This document shows positions 10,110-61,679 of a DNA stretch of 64,000 bases, piece after piece. Origin of the DNA: a virus; the IMG/VR virus record IMGVR_UViG_3300028025_000092. The stretch is one strand, 5' to 3'. A model generated the notes under the pieces. The model searched no databases, was not told the DNA's origin, and worked only from the letters and a program-made list of their open reading frames with translations. Made by a program: the position numbers and the translations under genes. Numbering within the stretch: position 1 is the first letter of the stretch; every line of letters starts with the position of its first letter.

Positions 10110-10117
10110 TATATATT
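10110..10117 (-). promoter_or_regulatory. Candidate late promoter AATATATA
   Basis: Only 5 nt before the ATG at 10104. Confidence 0.55.
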
Positions 10118-10127
10118 CGAGTTTAAT

Positions 10128-10157
10128 TTGAAATAATTCCTAATTACTTTCTATAAT
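10128..10157 (+). promoter_or_regulatory. Candidate early promoter (TTGAAA-N18-TATAAT, also readable as GAAAT-N17-TATAAT)
   Basis: Perfect TATAAT in a divergent intergenic region upstream of 10191. Confidence 0.55.
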
Positions 10158-15972: not shown

Positions 15973-18051
15973 ATGGCAAGTTATTTAAACGAAATTAAGG
16001 ACAATCTCAGTAGCGTAACTGATCCCAATCAGATACTGAACCGTGGTGTAGATAAACAAAGAACCTTATTTCTTAAGGGATTAAAATCAACATCTTCCGG
16101 GCAAAAAGAAGATCCAACTTATACTGGATTTAGAATAATGTTCGACATGGGTCATAATGGATTAGTAGACCCTGAGACTTTTCTACCTATAAGTCCTTTA
16201 TTTTCTAACGGAAGAAGCGGCGAAGGAAATCCCAAGATGATGAAATTAGACGGATCAACCGACTTTTTCCATTTATCCAGACAAAAAATGTATCCATTTC
16301 CTAACTATACGGAAAAGATGCACTATATGACTGCAGAGGGATACCTTAGACAAAGAAGAAGTAAAGCAGAGAATGGATTAGGCGGAAATTTAACTGATAA
16401 TACAGGTAGAGTTATAGCAGGAGATAGGAGTCAAATACAAGATAGCTCGATATCACACAGGGCAGACTCTTTAGTTGGATTTAAAAATATATTAACTAGT
16501 GTTAATGAAAAAAGTCCTTGGTTTATTCAGTCTATAGAAGGTCTTGATAAAGTATTAAGTGTTACCCCACCAAGACAAGTAGGAGGAGGATCTGGATATA
16601 AAGAACAAAGGTCTGGTGTTTTAACCTTCGATTGCATGGATTCTATAGATTTAAGAATTAATGCAATGGCAGAGCTTTATAGAAAAGCAACATATGATTA
16701 TCAAAACCATAGAGAATTACTTCCAGCTAATCTAAGAAAGTTTAGAATGTGGATCATAGTAACGGAGATCAGGCAAATAGATTTGCAGAAAAATTTAGGA
16801 GATGTTTTAAATCCTTTTAATATGCCAGGTGTTTCAAGTGCTGTTGAGTCAATCCGTAATATAGCAAGTTCTGCTGGTGTTTTAAAGAACAAATCTACAG
16901 AATCTGAAAACCCTAAGAAAGATCTAGATTCGTTTGTAAAGTCGTTTGAAAGAATGCAGCCTTATATTATGATCTATCAATTGGATCTTTGTGAATTTAA
17001 TTTCGACGAATCCTATGCATTTGGAACTCTATCTAATTCAAATACATCATCAGGATCTCCCGTAAAAAATAGATTTAAGGTACATGTTGGATCCGCTAAA
17101 GAATACAAATTACAATACAATATACTTTCGGATTTAATTAGAAATGAATCCATATTTGCTCCTATACTAATACAAGATAGCTGGAATTTGATTGGTTCTA
17201 AAATTTTAATGAAGAATGCAACAACCGATAATAACACAAATCTTTTTAGGAACCTAGCAAGCAACTTCATTAACAATTCTATTGCTTCTGTAGTTCAACA
17301 GCAGGTTTCTCCTATTGTTACCAAGGCACTTTTAGGTAACGCTTATGGCTTTAGATTATCGGATGCTGTTAGATCATTAAATTCAGTTCAGGATGCGGTT
17401 AATGGACTAAGTAATATAAGATCTCCTTTTCAGAATTCGACGCCTCAGGCTAATGGTCTTGGTGGACCTAGTGAAAGACAATATCAGGTAGTGAAGGAGG
17501 ATGTTTATCCAAATAATGCCAATCCGCCAGCAGGGGGAAGCCTTGGAAATATTTTACCCGGGGCAGGAGCTCCTGGGACAGTTGGGGCTAATGATGTTTA
17601 TCCTAATAGCCCAGGTAGCGATCTTGGATTACCTTCTAGGATTTATCCAAAGTCTGATGATGATGTATACAGAAACGTGGGAGGAGATTTTAGTAATAAG
17701 GATCTTGGGGTACCTGATAGAATATATTCTAATCTACCAAAGGATGATGTTTATCCAAATAGCCCAGGAAGTGATTTAGGCTTGCCAAAAAGAATATACG
17801 TATCTACAAAAAACGAGGATCTTTATCCAGATTCACCAGGTAATGATCTTGGAGTTCCTGATAGGGTATACAGAGAAAGCGACGGAGGCGACAAAGATCT
17901 TTATCCAGACTCTCCCGGATCTAGTTTAGGTTTACCTGATAGATCCTATCCAACTAACAGTGCCGATGATCAATATCCAAACTCCCCCGGAAGTGATCTT
18001 GGTGTACCGTCTAGGGACTATAAAACAATCAGCGAAAGAGTATATAAATAA
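15973..18051 (+). CDS. Tail/baseplate structural protein with C-terminal peptide repeats
   Basis: Globular N-terminal part (DPTYTGF, PWFIQSIEGL, LPANLRKF) in the baseplate operon, followed by a repeat tail. Confidence 0.7.
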   Translation: MASYLNEIKDNLSSVTDPNQILNRGVDKQRTLFLKGLKSTSSGQKEDPTYTGFRIMFDMGHNGLVDPETFLPISPLFSNGRSGEGNPKMMKLDGSTDFFHLSRQKMYPFPNYTEKMHYMTAEGYLRQRRSKAENGLGGNLTDNTGRVIAGDRSQIQDSSISHRADSLVGFKNILTSVNEKSPWFIQSIEGLDKVLSVTPPRQVGGGSGYKEQRSGVLTFDCMDSIDLRINAMAELYRKATYDYQNHRELLPANLRKFRMWIIVTEIRQIDLQKNLGDVLNPFNMPGVSSAVESIRNIASSAGVLKNKSTESENPKKDLDSFVKSFERMQPYIMIYQLDLCEFNFDESYAFGTLSNSNTSSGSPVKNRFKVHVGSAKEYKLQYNILSDLIRNESIFAPILIQDSWNLIGSKILMKNATTDNNTNLFRNLASNFINNSIASVVQQQVSPIVTKALLGNAYGFRLSDAVRSLNSVQDAVNGLSNIRSPFQNSTPQANGLGGPSERQYQVVKEDVYPNNANPPAGGSLGNILPGAGAPGTVGANDVYPNSPGSDLGLPSRIYPKSDDDVYRNVGGDFSNKDLGVPDRIYSNLPKDDVYPNSPGSDLGLPKRIYVSTKNEDLYPDSPGNDLGVPDRVYRESDGGDKDLYPDSPGSSLGLPDRSYPTNSADDQYPNSPGSDLGVPSRDYKTISERVYK
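17500..18048 (+). repeat. Coding tandem repeat D[VLQ]YPxSPGSDLG[LV]PxRxY
   Basis: Units start at 17593, 17662, 17746, 17818, 17896 and 17968, plus a partial at 17500; spacing 69-93 nt, always a multiple of 3, with synonymous divergence. Confidence 0.95.
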
Positions 18052-18093: not shown

Positions 18094-18879
18094 ATGCCTT
18101 TAGACAATCTCCAAGAATCCAATATAGAAAGAAGCCAACATTTCCTTGGTGTAATCGTCGATAACAAAGATCCCGAATTTAGAGCAAGATGTAAAGTTAG
18201 GGTTTTTGGCGTTTTTGACGGTATACAAGATTCTGATCTACCGTGGGCTTTTCAAAGATTCGATATTTCTTTTGGTGATAGCGGCGGTTCAGGCAGGGTC
18301 AGTATCCCAAAACTTGGTGCTATAGTTCATATTCAATTCAATAACGGTAACTATTATGCACCAGAATACAAAGCAGTACAGGAGCTTTCAGCAGATCTAA
18401 TAGAAGAACTAAAAAGCTCTTATGAAGGGGCTCATTCATTAATTTATGATAGCATAGAGAATCTTAAAATATTTTACACAGTAGCAAAGGGGTTAACGAT
18501 AGATTTAAAAGAATCAACCGTAGTAATTTCAAACGATAATTCCATAACAATAACCCATGCAGGACAAACCTCAACCCTAGAATTCAGAGGCGGTAAGATC
18601 ACAGAATACGCAAACTCTGAAATTGAAAGTACAGCAGTTACTAGAATTAAGCAAAGCAGCAATGAAGTTTGGGCAGACGGAAAAACAACTAAACTAGGGC
18701 ATTCCCCCGTTTATTCTGCAGTTTTGGCTGAGCCTTTATGGATGTTTTTAAAACAACTCGCAGCAGCAGTAGATGCTAAAGTTCCATCATGCCCCGGATG
18801 TATGGCTACGTTGGCAGAAAGTTACGAACAGCTATCCACTTCTGATGTAGTTAAGATAACAAAGAGCAATGAGCAATAA
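18094..18879 (+). CDS. Baseplate central spike, gp5/VgrG OB-fold, no lysozyme domain
   Basis: GVIVDNKDP...RCKVRVFG...LPWA...IPKLGA.V.IQF.NG, followed by a short beta-strand-rich region. Confidence 0.85.
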   Translation: MPLDNLQESNIERSQHFLGVIVDNKDPEFRARCKVRVFGVFDGIQDSDLPWAFQRFDISFGDSGGSGRVSIPKLGAIVHIQFNNGNYYAPEYKAVQELSADLIEELKSSYEGAHSLIYDSIENLKIFYTVAKGLTIDLKESTVVISNDNSITITHAGQTSTLEFRGGKITEYANSEIESTAVTRIKQSSNEVWADGKTTKLGHSPVYSAVLAEPLWMFLKQLAAAVDAKVPSCPGCMATLAESYEQLSTSDVVKITKSNEQ

Positions 18880-21800
18880 TTTAGAAAATCTTGAAAAGTG
18901 GGTTAAAGATTTTGAAAACGGTTCTATAACTGTTGAAGAATTGGCTTCTAGGTTATCTTCTATACCAGATCCTCTTGGAAACGAAGATGATATAATCAAA
19001 GTTGGGGAAGAAATTAATAACTCTCTAGAACCTGAAGATCTTGTTCTTACTGATGATGATATCAATGATATTATTTGTAAATACGAGGGAGAAGAGCTGG
19101 GTAATAGATTGATTTGGAGAATTTTGGAAAAATTAAATTTAACTGGTGATTTAAAAACTGATCCAGAATTTGATACCAATAATTCTTTTGAATCTTATTT
19201 TGAAAAACTTTCTCTCCAGGATAGATTGCAGAGGGCTAAAGAAATGCTTTTTGATAATTTAGATTTAGATATCTTAGGAATAAAAATAAAAAATCCAAAC
19301 TTAAAGAAAAGAAACTTTAAGATACTAGGATTTAATTTCCCTTTAAATATAATAACACTTAAAGGTAAACCCCTGTTTTTTCACATACCCCCTCCTAAAC
19401 TGAAATTGTCTAAAATATTAGAAACATTAAAAAATAGAATTAAATCTAAGAAAGTAAAATCCTGCGAGAAAAAAGGAACATATATTGATGAAGAATCTTT
19501 ATTAAAAAAATTACAGGATCTTCTGGATGACGAAAAAGACGAATACAATAATGTATTTGAGATTGCTGATGAATTATTTTGTGAACCTGCTATACCTATT
19601 AATCCAGAAACTGGCGAATCACTTTTTAATAAAACAGATTTAACCCAATTTTTGAAAGAAATATGTGAACCTGATTTACCAAATCCGGAGATTCCAGTAG
19701 ATCCTGAACCTAATATTGAAGACATATCAGATACCATTAATTCCTGTTTAAAACAAACTAAGGCCATCTTTAATGAAGTCAGAGAAAAAAATGAGGAGAA
19801 ATCCAGATTACAAAAAGCTGAAAAAGAGTTAGAAGAAGTTTTTTTTTATTATAAAATAGTTCAAAACTATTACCAAGAATTATATTCACAATTTGAAAAA
19901 AAATCAAAAGCTGGTAAAAAAGGAGATCCTTTAAACCTGGCTTTAAATTTAATTTTAGGATCCGGTGCAGATGATTACATAAAGAAACTAAATCAATTTT
20001 CTTCTAGGTTTGAATCTACTAAAAAAATAACATCATTAGGTGATAAGTATATTGGTATATCTTTTGGTATAAGTTTTCCTCACGGGTTAGGAAAAAACAT
20101 ACAGTATGAAAGGGTAAAGACTGAAGCTAATAATGATTTAATGAGTCAGGATTACCAAAAAGTTGATATTGCTAAACTACAGATTGGTATGGAATTTGGG
20201 AAGAACGGTGTTTTAGGGGGTAAAGACTTTTCTTTCTTTAAAGAGTTTGAATCATTTATAAAATTTAAAAATGAAAATCCTAAAAATAAATCAGATTACT
20301 ATAGCTTTGTTGGCGATATAGAGAACACAAACAAGAGCAAAGATCAAATTATCAAAGAAATAGAATCAGATCACGGGTTCTTATATTCTAATTTAATAGA
20401 AACATCAGCTAGTCCCTGGCTTTTCTTTACTGCACAGGAAAGAGGAGATAACGATGCAAGAAAGTCTGTTGATATAAAACCCTCCAAAACTGATAAAGAC
20501 GGAAATCCTAACAAAGAGTTTGAAGAATTCTGGCAGGATTTTAAAACTAAATGGGATCAAAAATACAATGCTAGAAAAAAAATAATAGAAGATAAAATAA
20601 CAGACATTAAAAAACTTTCGGATCCTCTTGTTGAAAAATTAGCAGACTATTATCTCACTGTTAACGTTTCTTCCGTCAAAAATAATTTAGATCTATTAAA
20701 AGGTGCATCTGACGAAATTAAAAAAAGAGTAACTTCTATCGAAGATTCTTTAATGTTAATAGCTGAAAAAATAACTAAGCTCGACCAAGAGAATTCCCCG
20801 GAAGGAATTTCCAACAGGGCTAACTCAATAAGTTGTGCTAACAAGGAGGAAGAAAAATGTCCAACAGTATGCTGTGGACCTGCTGGACAAAGCGTGAAGC
20901 TTAGTGATACATGTGCTTCACACAGATCTCCTGATTGCCCAAATCTTTTTACCAAGTGCTATTGGAAAGAATTTTCCAAAAATCTAAATAAAGTTGGGCT
21001 ACTTCCACTTCCTGCTGGATTACCCCCTATAGAAAATCCAGCTCAATTTCTACCTGATTTAGGATTAAAATATTGGCCAGTAGGATACCTCCCGCCCTCT
21101 TTCATTCCTCTTCCTCCGCCAATAGTTAATCCATTGGATGGCCTGCCTTTTATTAGAATCCCTATGCCCATGGTTTGGACTAAAGTTGATCCCATAGTGA
21201 TTCCTATAGGAATTGGGGTGATTGTTATATTCGTTCCGTTCATTGGTGGATTTATGCCAAGTCCTTTGGTTTTCTTTCATGATTTTTTAAGTGGCAATAG
21301 CATGTTTCTGCTAGGTCTTAGGGGATTTAGATTCATTCCCCGTAAATCGGATCCGGTTTCTAGGGATCCTTTGGAAAATTACAAGAAGATGCTTTCTAGG
21401 GGAATACCTAATTATCTTTTCCCATTTTCTAACTTAGGAAAAGATGATGTTGATAATCCGAAGAGGATTTTTGGCGAAGTGATTTCAAATCTTGAAAAAA
21501 GACTTGCTAATTACAGCAATCCTATAAACATGGAAAAAATCCAAAAGATTCAAAATAGAATAACAAAAAAGAAAGAGGAAGCGCAAACTAAAATCTTGGA
21601 AAAGAAAAGAAAAATGGCTTTAGAGGGGGGTGACATTAAGAAGGAAAAAGAGGAGATAGAAAAATTTTTAAAATCTATAGATGGTGAAAAAATTGAAGCC
21701 CTAAAGGATATTATAAAAGAATACTTAACAGGAGCCGTAGACATTCCCGATATACAATTCCCTAAGAAATCTAAAAATTTATTGGTTGATCTACCACAAC

Positions 21801-23173
21801 CCATAAAAGCGTTAAGAGATTTAGATGCCAAAAGAAAGCTTGGGGTTATACCAGACAAGATACCAAAAATTAATCTTTTGTCACGAATTCTTAGAGGTGT
21901 TGATTCTATAAAAATTCCTACTCCAAAGGAACTCGACGAATTAAACAAAAATCTGCCTAACAATTCTAAGATAGTTGCTAGGTTTGATAACAAGTTAAAG
22001 GATCTTGCTAATTCCCCAGAGGACGTAAAAAAGTTAGAGGACTTAATTAAGAAAAGTGCTGTTGATCTTCTAGAGGGGGATAACTCACCTCTTAGTAGTA
22101 AAAAATTACTTTCGTTTAAAGCTAAAATAACTCCTGCCCCAAGAATTGGGGGTGCAGGGGTTCCTTTACCGTCGGGCTTGGAAGAAATACCAAATCCTGT
22201 AATTTCGCAATTAAAAAGTTTTATATCTAGCAATATAAAACTAAATACAGATCAGCTATCATCTTTGGTGGGTAATTTATCAATTGCTGATAATAAAATT
22301 ATAAGACAAAGAGATCTTAAAATGATTACAAAAAACGTGATCAATTCGTCATTGTCAAAATTTCCAGTTGATTTAAAAAACTTTTCTATACCAGACCCTG
22401 CAAGCATGAAAGCCATGCTAAAATCCTTTACTAGTTTGGCATCCTCATTAAACCTCCCTGCCATTCCCCCAAAGAAGAGCGCATCTCCAATATCACCTAT
22501 CGGCCCCGGAGGAATTCCTCCTATTATAATTCCTGGTAAGGTCATTAGTAATTTTTTAGTTGATAATGCAATGTCTACAATAAACGTAGAAATGCTTACC
22601 AAGTTATTACCCGGAGTGCTTGAAAATTTTGAAAATCTGTCGGATACTGATATAAAGATGATGTCTGATAATATCATTAAGAATTTTGCTAAGAAAGCTA
22701 AAATTCCTGTTTTAGATTCTATCCCTAAAATACCTATTCCTGCAAGAAATCAAGATTATATAGAATTTACTATGAATTTCTTGCCAACCCATCCTTTTTC
22801 GGACATAGCATTTACTTTATTATGGGACAAATTTAAAACTCCTCCTAGGATACCAATACCTGGAGAATTCCTTGATGTGTATCTAAGAATACAGGATTCT
22901 ATATTTTCCAAATTGCCTTGGCCTGTTGTAGTTGTTTTAGGTAGAAATTTAATTAATATATTAAATCCCCTATGGAACAATGAGGATATTCCCCGCTGGG
23001 ATAGAATGAATTTAAAAAATCCATTTTATGTTGTTTTCATGGACGAATTTTTAAGATCTGCTGTTGATATCTCGGGAGGATTCAAATTCTTTGCAGGCGC
23101 GGGAAAATTATTTTATCCCCTCCCAGATTCTGAAATCTATTTGGGGTTTGGTACTAAGATTAACATAAACTAA
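18869..23173 (+). CDS. Large Pro-rich hypothetical protein (1434 aa), probably spike/baseplate-associated
   Basis: Overlaps the gp5-like stop; coiled coils, a Cys cluster and a Pro-rich hydrophobic segment. Confidence 0.7.
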   Translation: MSNNLENLEKWVKDFENGSITVEELASRLSSIPDPLGNEDDIIKVGEEINNSLEPEDLVLTDDDINDIICKYEGEELGNRLIWRILEKLNLTGDLKTDPEFDTNNSFESYFEKLSLQDRLQRAKEMLFDNLDLDILGIKIKNPNLKKRNFKILGFNFPLNIITLKGKPLFFHIPPPKLKLSKILETLKNRIKSKKVKSCEKKGTYIDEESLLKKLQDLLDDEKDEYNNVFEIADELFCEPAIPINPETGESLFNKTDLTQFLKEICEPDLPNPEIPVDPEPNIEDISDTINSCLKQTKAIFNEVREKNEEKSRLQKAEKELEEVFFYYKIVQNYYQELYSQFEKKSKAGKKGDPLNLALNLILGSGADDYIKKLNQFSSRFESTKKITSLGDKYIGISFGISFPHGLGKNIQYERVKTEANNDLMSQDYQKVDIAKLQIGMEFGKNGVLGGKDFSFFKEFESFIKFKNENPKNKSDYYSFVGDIENTNKSKDQIIKEIESDHGFLYSNLIETSASPWLFFTAQERGDNDARKSVDIKPSKTDKDGNPNKEFEEFWQDFKTKWDQKYNARKKIIEDKITDIKKLSDPLVEKLADYYLTVNVSSVKNNLDLLKGASDEIKKRVTSIEDSLMLIAEKITKLDQENSPEGISNRANSISCANKEEEKCPTVCCGPAGQSVKLSDTCASHRSPDCPNLFTKCYWKEFSKNLNKVGLLPLPAGLPPIENPAQFLPDLGLKYWPVGYLPPSFIPLPPPIVNPLDGLPFIRIPMPMVWTKVDPIVIPIGIGVIVIFVPFIGGFMPSPLVFFHDFLSGNSMFLLGLRGFRFIPRKSDPVSRDPLENYKKMLSRGIPNYLFPFSNLGKDDVDNPKRIFGEVISNLEKRLANYSNPINMEKIQKIQNRITKKKEEAQTKILEKKRKMALEGGDIKKEKEEIEKFLKSIDGEKIEALKDIIKEYLTGAVDIPDIQFPKKSKNLLVDLPQPIKALRDLDAKRKLGVIPDKIPKINLLSRILRGVDSIKIPTPKELDELNKNLPNNSKIVARFDNKLKDLANSPEDVKKLEDLIKKSAVDLLEGDNSPLSSKKLLSFKAKITPAPRIGGAGVPLPSGLEEIPNPVISQLKSFISSNIKLNTDQLSSLVGNLSIADNKIIRQRDLKMITKNVINSSLSKFPVDLKNFSIPDPASMKAMLKSFTSLASSLNLPAIPPKKSASPISPIGPGGIPPIIIPGKVISNFLVDNAMSTINVEMLTKLLPGVLENFENLSDTDIKMMSDNIIKNFAKKAKIPVLDSIPKIPIPARNQDYIEFTMNFLPTHPFSDIAFTLLWDKFKTPPRIPIPGEFLDVYLRIQDSIFSKLPWPVVVVLGRNLINILNPLWNNEDIPRWDRMNLKNPFYVVFMDEFLRSAVDISGGFKFFAGAGKLFYPLPDSEIYLGFGTKININ

Positions 23174-23195: not shown

Positions 23196-24320
23196 ATGGC
23201 TAAGCAAAGACTTTACACAAGGGATGAGTATTCTCCGGAGGAAAGAGCTGTTATGGATGCCCTTTATGAAGGGCACTTTAAAAGTAATTTTACCGATAAT
23301 AATATCAAATCTTATTCTAAGGAGCTAGAAGAAAATCAAGTATTAAGTGTTAAAATCACACAGATAAGAGGAAGCAGTGCAATAGGGGAAACCCTAACAG
23401 GTCAATCTGTTTCTATCGATTTATCTAAAGAGGAAAAAGCAATTCGTAGATTAGGATTTCCAGCAATTGCTGTTCAAGAAGGAACGCAATTAGATGTGGT
23501 TATTTTTAAAGACAAATCTGGATCATACAATGGTTCATTGGCGGCTGGGTATGAAAATTCGTTGAAAAATGAATTATTAGCATCAATCAAAGACGAAAAT
23601 ACTGCATATACAGTTAGAATAGATTCAACCTGTCCTGGTGGATTTATGGTAAATCTTTCTGGAATCAAGTGTTTCCTTCCAGGATCACTAGCAGCAGCAA
23701 ATAGAATTATAGATTTTCAATCTTTTGTTGGCAGAACAATAAATGTTATGATTGAAACTTATGACGAAAAGAGAGACATTTTTGTTGTATCGTTTAAAAA
23801 GTATCTAAGACATATTATAGATGCTAAGGTTGAGGAATTATCTTTAACCCAAAAATATACTGGAACTGTTACAGGAACATCTAATGCAGGTGTATTTGTT
23901 GAATGGGACGAGTATTATACTGGTTTAATTCCTGCAGAGGAATTCGAGAATAATGGCCTTAAAATGGATTTAAATGCGGGAGGAAGCGTATCATTCTATG
24001 TTTCTGACTTTAGAAATCCTAACAGAATAGTTTTAAGATTAAACCCACCTGATGATAAAGATAGGGAATTACAGGAACTTAGAGACGTTTCTTTATTAGA
24101 AGATAAAGAAAATAAAATATATAGAGGGACAGTAACCAAAGTTAAAGGTTTTGGAGTTTTTGTAAAACTTGAAAACGGAATAGTTGGACTAGTCGAAAAG
24201 GACTATTTAGCAGGAAATCCAAAAGACTATGAGGTTGGTTCAGAAATGGCCTTCACAGTCTTGGACGTAGAGCTACAGAGTTCAAAACTCTATTTAAAAG
24301 AAAAAATTGAAAATACTTGA
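23196..24320 (+). CDS. Ribosomal protein S1-like multi-S1-domain protein
   Basis: GGFMVNLSGIKCFLPGSL, YTGTVTGTSNAGVFVE...TGLI and YRGTVTKVKGFGVFVKL..GIVGLV are three S1/OB repeats, plus a degenerate N-terminal one. Confidence 0.9.
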   Translation: MAKQRLYTRDEYSPEERAVMDALYEGHFKSNFTDNNIKSYSKELEENQVLSVKITQIRGSSAIGETLTGQSVSIDLSKEEKAIRRLGFPAIAVQEGTQLDVVIFKDKSGSYNGSLAAGYENSLKNELLASIKDENTAYTVRIDSTCPGGFMVNLSGIKCFLPGSLAAANRIIDFQSFVGRTINVMIETYDEKRDIFVVSFKKYLRHIIDAKVEELSLTQKYTGTVTGTSNAGVFVEWDEYYTGLIPAEEFENNGLKMDLNAGGSVSFYVSDFRNPNRIVLRLNPPDDKDRELQELRDVSLLEDKENKIYRGTVTKVKGFGVFVKLENGIVGLVEKDYLAGNPKDYEVGSEMAFTVLDVELQSSKLYLKEKIENT

Positions 24321-25770
24321 TCAAAATTTTTATTACGCAGCTCAAATAGGATTCGAGTTTGAATTCATGTCGTCCTTTACTAGAGACGAAATTGCAGACA
24401 AAATTGGGGAAGATTTAGGGAAAAAAGTTAAGGTATTTAGAAAATACCACTCTAAATTTTCCCCAACTCGTGATATTTTTAAGCTAGAGCCTGATTTTTC
24501 GGGAGGTTTAAAAATGGTAGAGTTAATTACCGGTCCTATGGATTATTTCGAAGCTATTCCGGTTTTAATCAGAATTCTTAAATGGATAGACGAAAATGGA
24601 TACACCACAGAAAAATCCGCACTTCAATTTGGTCTAAGTTTCGATAGATTAAAATATCCTTCTCTGGTTGATTTTAAAGAACTGAATCCCCTAAAATTCG
24701 TTTTGGGATTTGATGAAGAGTTTATTTGGAGCAGATTTCCAGAAAGAAGAGGATCCTTATACGCTAAATCAATTAAAAGAATTTCTCCCTCTAACAAGTT
24801 TATCAGGGGGTATAAAAATGTTTTAGGCGACAGAAATGCTTATAAGGTCTATACTGAAAAAAATATGGGCGTGAATCTAACTAAGTTAGAGCAAGGTTAC
24901 ATGGAGGTTAGATATATGGGGGGTACGGATTATCAGAAAAAGTATTCGGAGATAAAAGAAGTTATAGATTACACTATCAGTCACACATTTAATTCACTTT
25001 TAAGTAATGACACATTAAACCAGAAAGAAACCGCTGCTCTTAGCGAACTAATTTCTAATGTTTATAAGGAAACTGAAAGTTTTATTGATGCTGAATCCTT
25101 TATGAGAAATTATCCTAATTTCCACGTAAGTGTAGATTTAAGAGAGGATTTACAAATAATTAAAACTTATTTTAATGAGGTCAGAAATATTCTTTATAGT
25201 TTAATAGTTGAAAATTCAGTAACAGAGGGATTTTTAAATTATGACACTCAAATAGCTAAGTATCAATTAAAAGATGCAGTTACCAATAGAGCTAATATGA
25301 TAAAAGACCTAGATTTAATTGAATGTGAGATAGAGGGTAATATTGGAAGATGTAGATTATTTGGATGTACTCTAAATAACTGTCAAATAGAGGATTCACA
25401 ATTAGTTATGAATAATGACATAAAAGAGTCTAAAATAATAGATTGTGATTTAAGTTTTAGCAACAAAATAATAAACTCCTATATAGACTCAAAAGACAGA
25501 GAAATCAGCTGCGAGGTAGAAGCAGGAGTAATTAGATCTGGTTACATTACAAATCTAGCTGAGGTATCGAAAGAAACCGAAATCATTAATAATAACGCAG
25601 ATGCAAAAGGGAAAGATAAAGGAAAAGGAAAGGGCGGTAAAATGCTAATTACTTCAGTATTTCCCGATAGAAATGATGACGGACAGATAAGACCGAACGG
25701 ACCCTTCAGCAATCTAAACACAGGCAAACCTAGTTTTTCGATAAATAGATTGTTTAAAAATAACAACTAA
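24307..25770 (+). CDS. Putative amidoligase (COOH-NH2 ligase) with C-terminal beta-helix-like repeats
   Basis: IGFEFEF, LEPDFSGG..MVELITGP, EVRYMGG; C-terminal [ILC]x[DNE][CS]x pentapeptide pattern; TTG start overlapping the S1 gene. Confidence 0.7.
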   Translation: MKILDQNFYYAAQIGFEFEFMSSFTRDEIADKIGEDLGKKVKVFRKYHSKFSPTRDIFKLEPDFSGGLKMVELITGPMDYFEAIPVLIRILKWIDENGYTTEKSALQFGLSFDRLKYPSLVDFKELNPLKFVLGFDEEFIWSRFPERRGSLYAKSIKRISPSNKFIRGYKNVLGDRNAYKVYTEKNMGVNLTKLEQGYMEVRYMGGTDYQKKYSEIKEVIDYTISHTFNSLLSNDTLNQKETAALSELISNVYKETESFIDAESFMRNYPNFHVSVDLREDLQIIKTYFNEVRNILYSLIVENSVTEGFLNYDTQIAKYQLKDAVTNRANMIKDLDLIECEIEGNIGRCRLFGCTLNNCQIEDSQLVMNNDIKESKIIDCDLSFSNKIINSYIDSKDREISCEVEAGVIRSGYITNLAEVSKETEIINNNADAKGKDKGKGKGGKMLITSVFPDRNDDGQIRPNGPFSNLNTGKPSFSINRLFKNNN

Positions 25771-25773
25771 GTA

Positions 25774-26544
25774 ATGAACACCACAGAAGATCAGTTGATA
25801 CAAGAGGTTAAGGACGATATTTCTCACTCATGTGCCCTACCATATGCCTTAAACGATGGGGAGATAAAAAGAATTATAAAAAGAGCTAAGGCTTATTTTT
25901 ATGATAACTATCAATATGCGGTTGAAGATAAGATAATGGTATTACCCGCTGTAATATTTGCAGGCCCACAATTTAGAGCAACAAGACAGGTCCAACTTCC
26001 TGAGTGTGTGGTAAGTGTATGGGACGTGAGAGAGGTTGGTGGTGCCGGACTAGTAGGTACACCAGACAGAGATTTTGGAGACAGTAAATTGCTAGGCTCA
26101 GAATTAATGCTAAGTCCTTTCGTTGGTGATAATTTAGTTTACAGAACAGTATTATATTCATTTTTTGATTTAGCAAAAGCATATCTATTAGAGACCTTTG
26201 CTTTTAATTACAATAAAAATACCAAGAGATTAACAATAAACGGTAGAGATCCTAATAGAACAACATCTACCGGATTAACTATGGGAGGTAGAGACGTTGG
26301 GGTTAGAGCATTTATTGCAATTCCGGAGGAGAATCTCTATTCCGATGAACTTTTTGTCAGATATGTTTTAGCCGAAGCTAAAATCAATATAGGTAGACTT
26401 TTAGGAACATTTGGGTATCAATTACCTGGTGGAGTAACCATAAATGCTGCTGCTATTCAATCTATAGGACAGGCAGAGAAAGCAGAGGTTATGGAAATGA
26501 TTAAAAGCGAAAACACTCCTAGCTATTTCTTGCAGTGGAATTAA
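25774..26544 (+). CDS. Neck protein (T4 gp13-like)
   Basis: RYVLAEAK..IG..LG.F...LPGGVTIN C-terminal motif typical of gp13. Confidence 0.8.
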   Translation: MNTTEDQLIQEVKDDISHSCALPYALNDGEIKRIIKRAKAYFYDNYQYAVEDKIMVLPAVIFAGPQFRATRQVQLPECVVSVWDVREVGGAGLVGTPDRDFGDSKLLGSELMLSPFVGDNLVYRTVLYSFFDLAKAYLLETFAFNYNKNTKRLTINGRDPNRTTSTGLTMGGRDVGVRAFIAIPEENLYSDELFVRYVLAEAKINIGRLLGTFGYQLPGGVTINAAAIQSIGQAEKAEVMEMIKSENTPSYFLQWN

Positions 26545-26571
26545 CCCCTTTAATTATCTTCTCCTAATATT

Positions 26572-26583
26572 TATAAATATATA
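26572..26583 (+). promoter_or_regulatory. Candidate late promoter (overlapping TATAAATA and AATATATA)
   Basis: 9 nt before ATG 26593, inside an inverted repeat. Confidence 0.55.
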
Positions 26584-26592
26584 AGGGAGATA

Positions 26593-26964
26593 ATGATCAA
26601 AATTTCGGACATATACCCAAGAAATCCTGATGATCCGCTTTACGTACCAAATAAGCTGGAGACCGACGATGTCGTAGAATCCACTATAGGTATGATTAAG
26701 CAGATTATGCTAACCAAGCCAGGCTCTGTTCTTGGAGATCCATTTTTTGGTATAGATCTTGAATCACTTATATTTGATTTTGACGTTTCCCAATCAGAGC
26801 TAGAAGAGGCAATAAGCTTACAACTTTATACCTATTGTACATTTGCTAGGGGAATATTAAAAGTAGATTTTAAGATTGGATTCTACCAGGGAGACACCCG
26901 AGATAGCTGTGTTATTGAATTTGGAATCAAAGGAAACCCGGTATTAGGAATAAAGGTAATTTAA
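26593..26964 (+). CDS. Baseplate wedge protein gp25-like
   Basis: IKQIMLTKPG.VLGDPFFG.DL..LIFD. Confidence 0.85.
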   Translation: MIKISDIYPRNPDDPLYVPNKLETDDVVESTIGMIKQIMLTKPGSVLGDPFFGIDLESLIFDFDVSQSELEEAISLQLYTYCTFARGILKVDFKIGFYQGDTRDSCVIEFGIKGNPVLGIKVI

Positions 26965-53723: not shown

Positions 53724-53731
53724 GATATATA
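53724..53731 (+). promoter_or_regulatory. Candidate late promoter GATATATA
   Basis: 7 nt before ATG 53739. Confidence 0.6.
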
Positions 53732-57311: not shown

Positions 57312-57330
57312 TATATACCTTGGATATATA
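57312..57330. promoter_or_regulatory. Back-to-back candidate late promoters (GGTATATA on -, GATATATA on +)
   Basis: TATATACC-TT-GGATATATA between the divergent resolvase and SSB genes. Confidence 0.5.
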
Positions 57331-61671: not shown

Positions 61672-61679
61672 GATATATA
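61672..61679 (+). promoter_or_regulatory. Candidate late promoter GATATATA
   Basis: 10 nt before GTG 61690 and 13 nt before ATG 61693. Confidence 0.6.

Follow-up and report, generated by a model that had tools for sequence, protein, structure and literature searches.

A divergent homologue of ribosomal protein bS1 is encoded among the baseplate genes of the window, the whole stretch of 64,000 nucleotides from IMG/VR virus record IMGVR_UViG_3300028025_000092 that was analysed; the source is a large uncultured lake phage. The explanation judged somewhat likelier than an even chance is that this protein is a late-made, four-domain phage paralogue of bS1 which acts on the host 30S subunit and there sustains initiation on A-rich leaders devoid of a Shine-Dalgarno (SD) sequence. 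Its ribosome binding and time of expression, as well as the transcript starts and the host phylum, are inferred here. A role of the phage S1 in translation is plausible and already a published idea: S1 of huge phages has been proposed to redirect host ribosomes in a study that also noted their lack of SD sequences (Al-Shayeb 2020, PMC7162821), and a like proposal exists for phage bS21 encoded in late structural regions (Chen 2022, PMC9723584).

The 374-residue protein matches the Pfam S1 family (PF00575, E 5e-18), and all of the eleven NCBIfam models that it matches best describe 30S ribosomal protein S1. The best alignment pairs residues 38-367 with positions 10-345 of a four-domain S1 model that has 391 positions. 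It falls below all curated NCBIfam bS1 cut-offs (its highest score, 83.7 bits, compares with a cut-off of 368), so that its sequence marks it as a divergent bS1 homologue which is no orthologue by NCBI's rule. The top sequence matches in the PDB are E. coli bS1, with residues 91-236 aligned to E. coli 60-210, a segment that takes in all of domain 2, flanked by the last part of domain 1 and the first part of domain 3. In the AlphaFold2 model (mean pLDDT 82, built on 37 homologues) an N-terminal helix and an ill-defined linker are followed by four OB barrels (Table 1), a count which lies within the four to six tandem S1/OB domains of bS1 proteins. Ribosome-bound E. coli bS1 is ranked first by Foldseek (E 2e-23), and two-domain (D1-D2) models of 30S-bound bS1 superpose on the phage model with a target-normalised TM score of 0.7. 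Collinearity with bS1, domains 1 and 2 included, is thus seen in NCBIfam, PDB and Foldseek comparisons alike. The phage protein is a true bS1 homologue, collinear with D1-D4 of E. coli and retaining the ribosome-binding half of the molecule (N-terminal helix, D1 and D2). The description of three clear and one degenerate OB domain given in the sequence-only reading was a fair one, domain 1 being the divergent domain that receives no Pfam score.

Table 1. Features of the phage S1 gene, its operon and the late boxes (positions in the window)
Feature	Position	Strand	Basis
Phage bS1 homologue CDS (P0001), 374 aa	23196..24320	+	ORF, Pfam, PDB, NCBIfam, AlphaFold2, Foldseek
N-terminal helix, residues 14-31; candidate ribosome anchor	23235..23288	+	AlphaFold2 model and conservation
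OB domain 1, residues 48-114; divergent, without Pfam score	23337..23537	+	Pfam, PDB alignment, AlphaFold2
OB domain 2, residues 138-199; nearly invariant in clade	23607..23792	+	Alignment, AlphaFold2
OB domain 3, residues 220-281; S1-type RNA-binding motif	23853..24038	+	PDB alignment, conservation, AlphaFold2
OB domain 4, residues 309-368; best Pfam S1 match	24120..24299	+	Pfam, AlphaFold2
gp5-like hub protein (hub-spike gene)	18094-18879	+	Phage_base_V in orthologue
1434-aa protein (1434-1710 aa across relatives)	18869-23173	+	ORF, synteny
~470-487-aa protein, no family assigned	24307-25770	+	TTG start 24307, first ATG 24367
gp13-like neck protein	25774-26544	+	Profile match, synteny
gp25-like protein, 123 aa	start 26593	+	Synteny
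Variant late box AGTATATA, then AATA, 47 nt before hub-spike gene	18039..18046	+	Motif scan
Late box AATATATA, 9 nt before gp25-like start 26593	26576..26583	+	Motif scan
Late box AATATATA, 5 nt before start 10104	10110..10117	-	Motif scan
Late box variant GGTATATA, 6 nt before start 57305	57312..57319	-	Motif scan
Late box GATATATA, 7 nt before start 53739	53724..53731	+	Motif scan
Late box GATATATA, 10 nt before GTG 61690, 13 nt before ATG 61693	61672..61679	+	Motif scan

The phage protein resembles the bS1 proteins of E. coli and Flavobacterium johnsoniae in having an N-terminal helix followed by tandem OB/S1 domains in the order D1-D4. It also has the D2 sequence signature in common with bacterial bS1, and its top structural matches are ribosome-bound bS1. 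However, it has four domains where bacterial bS1 has six, it is only ~20% identical to them in structural alignments and below the curated family cut-offs, its N-terminal anchor cannot be aligned with theirs, and the loop that carries Lys43 in the bacterial protein is replaced.

Across the homologue alignment domain 2 is almost invariant and is the most conserved part of the protein. On one face of the N-terminal helix the clade has an invariant Tyr24, with position 28 aromatic in most members, and Tyr12, like Tyr24, is invariant in this N-terminal region. In bS1 of bacteria an aromatic pair of the N-terminal helix (Phe5/Phe9) stacks on Phe32 of uS2, Lys43 lies at the zinc pocket of uS2, and domains 1-2 of the E. 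coli protein contact the ribosome, not RNA (PMC10123108). By analogy with the Phe5/Phe9 helix, the phage helix may serve as a ribosome anchor. However, the N-terminal 47 residues of the phage protein could not be aligned with the helix by which E. coli bS1 binds uS2, and in the alignment its domain-1 loop has no lysine at the Lys43 site but an invariant Glu65, Gly69 and Gln70 (E-x3-G-Q); together with the low NCBIfam score, these two features count against the reading of a ribosome-bound bS1. Prediction of a complex between the N-terminal 135 residues and uS2 of F. johnsoniae scored 0.71, and a control in which an unrelated protein took the place of uS2 scored 0.65, so that the prediction weighs neither for nor against binding. 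The canonical S1 motif for RNA binding is preserved in domains 3 and 4, and a phage S1 with two such domains looks like a working protein more than a dominant-negative one.

A search of 5.8 billion proteins returned more than 385 homologues of ~370 residues (nearly all 366-415) with 46-99% identity, on contigs reaching 453 kb, and at least 87 S1 loci are present in IMG/VR. The gene was found in 70 of the 70 related loci with enough DNA upstream of the gp25-like gene, and relatives without S1, sought by searching for the gp25-like protein, did not appear among these 70 loci. The S1 gene is fixed in a large freshwater clade of huge phages. Among 50,697 phage records the only relatives were proteins of the Prevotella Lak megaphages and of the huge phages of Al-Shayeb et al., which are 363-369 residues long, have the domain-2 signature in common with the window S1 and are 33% identical to it over residues 91-367 and 39% over residues 113-289. 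That the only phage relatives are of the same size and signature indicates a phage-specific S1 subfamily rather than a recent capture from a host. The occurrence of S1 homologues in huge phages, invoked by the sequence-only reading, is on record (PMC7162821), and the database relatives were indeed found in such genomes. The published rpS1 proteins likewise have multiple S1 domains, belong to phages of more than 200 kb in which SD sequences are rare, and were proposed to redirect ribosomes (PMC7162821). The window S1 differs from them in its place in a late operon for baseplate and neck proteins, in a freshwater clade distinct from theirs, and in having exactly four domains and an N-terminal helix. 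The homologue of phage Lak-B5 (L084 8521-9630, 369 aa) has only domains 2-3 in common with the window family; its N-terminal part of ~160 residues is different, a fourth domain is missing, and its gene adjoins those of a Thg1-like tRNA-His guanylyltransferase and a DnaB-like helicase, not virion genes. One family member, NBU96851.1 (P0091), carries the database title '30S ribosomal protein S1 [Spirochaetia bacterium]'; its 6.7-kb MAG contig is probably phage DNA binned with a bacterium.

The placement of the gene inside a baseplate cluster was correct, with baseplate-wedge and gp13-like neck proteins as neighbours of S1. The order of genes is gp5-like hub, 1434-1710-aa protein, S1, ~480-aa protein, gp13-like neck, gp25-like, baseplate-J-like wedge, an ~85-aa protein and a 2250-2570-aa protein, and from gp5-like to baseplate J it is constant in relatives down to 50% protein identity. 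The ~480-aa gene starts with TTG, overlaps the S1 stop and stayed without a match in Pfam or PHROGs at the thresholds applied; in PHROGs neither the S1 protein nor four of the five neighbours scanned had a family. The 22-nt gap before S1 contains no late box. The variant box upstream of the hub-spike gene (Table 1) is a candidate promoter of a gp5-like/1434-aa/S1 operon, and in some relatives a box precedes the gp5-like orthologue by 6 nt, measured from TATATA[AG]. As the Lak homologue lies outside the virion genes, the baseplate position is a trait of the clade and no proof of a structural role, and the Thg1-like and DnaB-like neighbours of that homologue argue for a non-structural job. A translation factor locked in a baseplate operon is nevertheless unusual and may have another meaning. 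Around the downstream neighbours, just 3 nt separate a TATATA[AG] motif from the start of the ~480-aa gene in some relatives. In locus L003 a terminator-like hairpin and a separate TATATATAAA box follow the S1 gene, and a GIY-YIG/NUMOD3 homing-endonuclease-like gene (L003 13348-14022), together with a 180-aa ORF (L003 12788-13330), lies between the ~480-aa and gp13-like genes.

The late motif proposed in the sequence-only reading is real and does precede start codons, but its consensus is RATATATA (scored here as TATATA[AG], with distances counted from the end of RATATATA) and not the TATAAATA of T4. The T4 consensus itself was rejected as the late motif, occurring 13 times against 14.5 expected. 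Eight of the eleven ATATATA[AG] sites in the 64 kb lie at most 50 nt upstream of a start on the same strand, a zone holding 2% of positions and about 3-13% of the sites of AT-rich control words. The box-to-start distances reported earlier were reproduced exactly, at 5 (10104, minus strand), 6 (57305, minus strand), 7 (53739), 9 (26593) and 10/13 nt (61690/61693), and one further case is a TATAAATA 10 nt before 13868. All 78 loci have a box before the gp25-like gene (AATATATA in 72, GATATATA in five), in 76 cases at 6-10 nt from the start; the bases between box and start vary and contain no SD sequence conserved among loci. Over all related loci, no TATATA[AG] is nearer than 3 nt to any start.

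A gp55-like late sigma factor of ~123 aa is encoded by two close relatives whose S1 proteins are 82-85% identical to that of the window (phrog_234; G001, L088 at G001:C1:143951-144286, E 4e-16; G003, L087 at G003:C1:109217-109558, E 1e-17), which fits the RATATATA boxes as T4-type late promoters. The boxes are lone 8-bp AT-rich elements oriented with the late genes, and RATATATA agrees with TATAAATA at six of eight positions. As a late promoter of T4 consists of a lone 8-bp box at -13 to -6 (PMC2988020), leader lengths can be predicted from this geometry, giving 0 nt (10104, minus strand), 1 nt (57305, minus strand), 2 nt (53739), 4 nt (26593) and 5-8 nt (13868 and 61690/61693) in the window and 1-5 nt for the gp25-like gene in 76 of 78 loci. 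With a box so close to the start, any transcript begun after it has a leader of a few nucleotides at most. RATATATA would thus suit a late promoter from which transcription begins immediately ahead of the start codon, and in a minority of late operons the first cistrons are probably leaderless or preceded by 1-5 nt. This is a trait of the promoters; no evidence was found that it depends on the S1 protein. The likeness to T4 late promoters extends to the lone 8-bp AT-rich box without a -35 element and, in the relatives, to the gp55-like sigma, whereas the consensus differs (RATATATA against TATAAATA) and several window boxes abut a start codon, with predicted leaders of 0-5 nt. Late genes of T4 use SD sequences, and none is known to have a box abutting the start codon and a leader of 0-5 nt. 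Sigma-70-type promoters and intrinsic terminators did not exceed the shuffled expectation in the window. The best sigma-70-like match (TTGAAA, 18 nt, TATAAT; 10128-10157, plus strand) is located in the divergent gap before gene 10191, and may be an early or middle promoter since that gene has no RATATATA box.

At window positions 26553-26595 the start codon of the gp25-like gene is covered by the 3' arm of a hairpin that has the late box in its loop. Pairing of a segment 30-45 nt upstream with the gp25-like start region recurs in L003, L016, L036, L053, L054 and L068, and the arms differ in sequence between lineages yet stay complementary. Pairing of the arms exceeds that of shuffled sequences, the mean z being -0.77 here and +0.04 at other genes, and reaches p <= 0.05 at 11 of 46 sites. 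The design, a box in the loop of a hairpin pairing with the start region, is that of the late-only T4 genes e, soc, 49 and I-TevI, in which such a hairpin hides the start (PMC3014915).

An SD core at -18 to -4 was detected before one of 50 window genes, against seven of 50 in a control stretch further upstream, while A accounts for 42-68% of bases at each position from -22 to -4 of the window genes. A late box is situated at most 13 nt from the start in six of the 50 genes and 18-43 nt from it in five, 15 genes are coupled by stop and start, and 24 have a short A-rich intercistronic leader. These figures confirmed the earlier statement that most genes have A-rich SD-less leaders or TAATG/ATGA coupling, and they mean that ~39 of the 50 must initiate internally on A-rich SD-less leaders, the type of RNA on which S1 classically acts, or by coupling. 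In Bacteroidia, bS1 promotes initiation on A-rich SD-less leaders (PMC13000457, PMC6847099), with A at -12/-13 near S1 (PMC6847099); 87% of leaders are longer than 10 nt (PMC6847099) and leaderless mRNAs amount to ~5.5% (PMC9723704).

The relative G001, whose S1 is 85% identical to that of the window, encodes a 64-aa bS21 homologue (PF01165, 47.8 bits, above the Pfam cut-off). The gene (L097 9948-10142, equal to G001:C1:18947-19141) adjoins a Nol-like carbamoyltransferase gene in an auxiliary-gene region. In a genome scan, the 80 best cellular relatives of this bS21 were all from Bacteroidota, headed by a Chitinophagales MAG at 65%, a result moderately biased by search patterns taken from an alignment that probably included cellular sequences. 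Taken with the composition of the leaders, the G001 bS21 suggests that the host is probably a member of the Bacteroidota. The -7 box of this phylum, TAnnTTTG, was not enriched in the window and so provides no evidence on the host. In phages of lake Bacteroidetes, bS21 is encoded among structural genes, expressed late and proposed to favour late phage mRNAs (PMC9723584). Those phages, of ~300 kb and ~31-34% GC, also come from a lake, and their bS21 has been put forward as a stand-in component of Bacteroidetes ribosomes (Chen et al. 2022, PMC9723584). The parallel with the window phage is that a gene for a small-subunit initiation protein sits in a conserved structural region (PMC9723584) and that its close relative G001 also carries bS21. 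The differences are that the protein in question is bS1 here and bS21 there, S1 being unmentioned in that paper (PMC9723584), and that G001 has its bS21 gene away from the head genes, in an auxiliary-gene region.

In the favoured explanation, S1 would be a late product of the hub-spike operon, transcribed from a gp55-type RATATATA promoter, and would most likely attach to the host 30S subunit by its N-terminal helix together with domains 1-2. The host ribosomes, probably of Bacteroidota, would ignore SD sequences, and domains 3-4 would capture A-rich, unstructured leaders, the phage S1 supplementing or replacing host bS1 during the bulk synthesis of structural proteins from long polycistronic late mRNAs. 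Much of the takeover model of the sequence-only reading is retained by this, namely the bS1 homologue, an operon headed by a late box, the lack of SD sequences and boxes near starts, but the link between S1 and leaderless mRNA is not. That model held that the shortened S1 displaces host bS1 on uS2, disabling leadered host mRNAs so that leaderless phage late mRNAs win, which now seems very unlikely, a box being at most 13 nt from the start in only six of 50 genes. It would agree with the retention of the helix, D1 and D2, with D2 as the most conserved domain, with the absence of the two C-terminal domains of typical bS1, and with the late box 5-13 nt from the start in six window genes and the conserved close box of the gp25-like gene across loci. 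An N-terminal fragment of E. coli S1 is also known to block bulk translation while sparing leaderless mRNA. However, bS1 promotes initiation on A-rich SD-less leaders, and an S1 that crippled it would therefore also harm late genes of the phage itself, shutting down the ~39 of 50 cistrons that start internally on such leaders or by coupling. Moreover, the canonical RNA-binding motif is kept in domains 3 and 4, other late boxes are 18-47 nt from their starts, and no relative lacks S1, which leaves no contrast for its co-occurrence with a short spacing between promoter and ATG. Leaderless mRNAs are the class least in need of S1, and with near-leaderless cistrons in the minority a specific coupling of S1 to leaderless initiation is unsupported.

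Binding of RNA off the ribosome, as a chaperone or protector of late mRNA, a ribonuclease cofactor or a helper of elongation or antitermination, is less improbable, though still unlikely. S1 domains are general binders of single-stranded RNA, action 'on or off the ribosome' is allowed by Al-Shayeb et al. (PMC7162821), and host bS1 is used off the ribosome by RegB of T4 and by Q-beta replicase (PMC13157829); scores below the bS1 family cut-offs and unrecognisable uS2-contact residues would be expected as well. Such a role is harder to reconcile with collinearity to D1-D4 of bS1, including the two domains that bind the ribosome in E. coli (PMC10123108), and with the strongest constraint falling on D2 instead of the RNA-binding domains. 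The invariant site between hub-spike and neck genes throughout the clade and the presumed late co-transcription with virion genes would suit a protein linked to the virion, either packaged for the ribosomes of the next host or acting as an assembly or structural component of hub or neck. This too is very improbable, given that the Lak homologue is located among tRNA and replication genes, that the full bS1-like architecture is kept and that phage bS21 is found among structural genes without being structural (PMC9723584). A capsid-targeting leader on S1 was likewise rejected, the alignment showing no conserved hydrophobic-x-Glu targeting or cleavage site at the N-terminus, where position 25 varies. 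A further proposal, quite unlikely as a whole, is that phage S1 and phage bS21 sit jointly at the platform and mRNA exit channel of the Bacteroidota 30S subunit. The resulting 'phage-specialised' late ribosomes would start efficiently on A-rich SD-less cistrons and on mRNAs with 0-5-nt leaders, which are rare in the host, and in a variant of this proposal S1 would in addition be packaged and carried into the next cell.

The analysis extends published observations on phage S1 and overturns none. Details that appear to be unreported are the fixed place of the gene in a baseplate operon and the T4-type late boxes that abut start codons. Apart from a few tests of incorporation, phage-encoded ribosomal proteins are known from their sequences alone. 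The clade described here offers a clean natural case, in which an abundant and strongly conserved four-domain S1, with bS21 as a likely partner, meets a likely host phylum whose initiation relies on bS1 and bS21 rather than on SD pairing, and in which a simple late promoter predicts which mRNAs are nearly leaderless. Given ribosomes of the host or of F. johnsoniae, it could show whether phages make specialised ribosomes.
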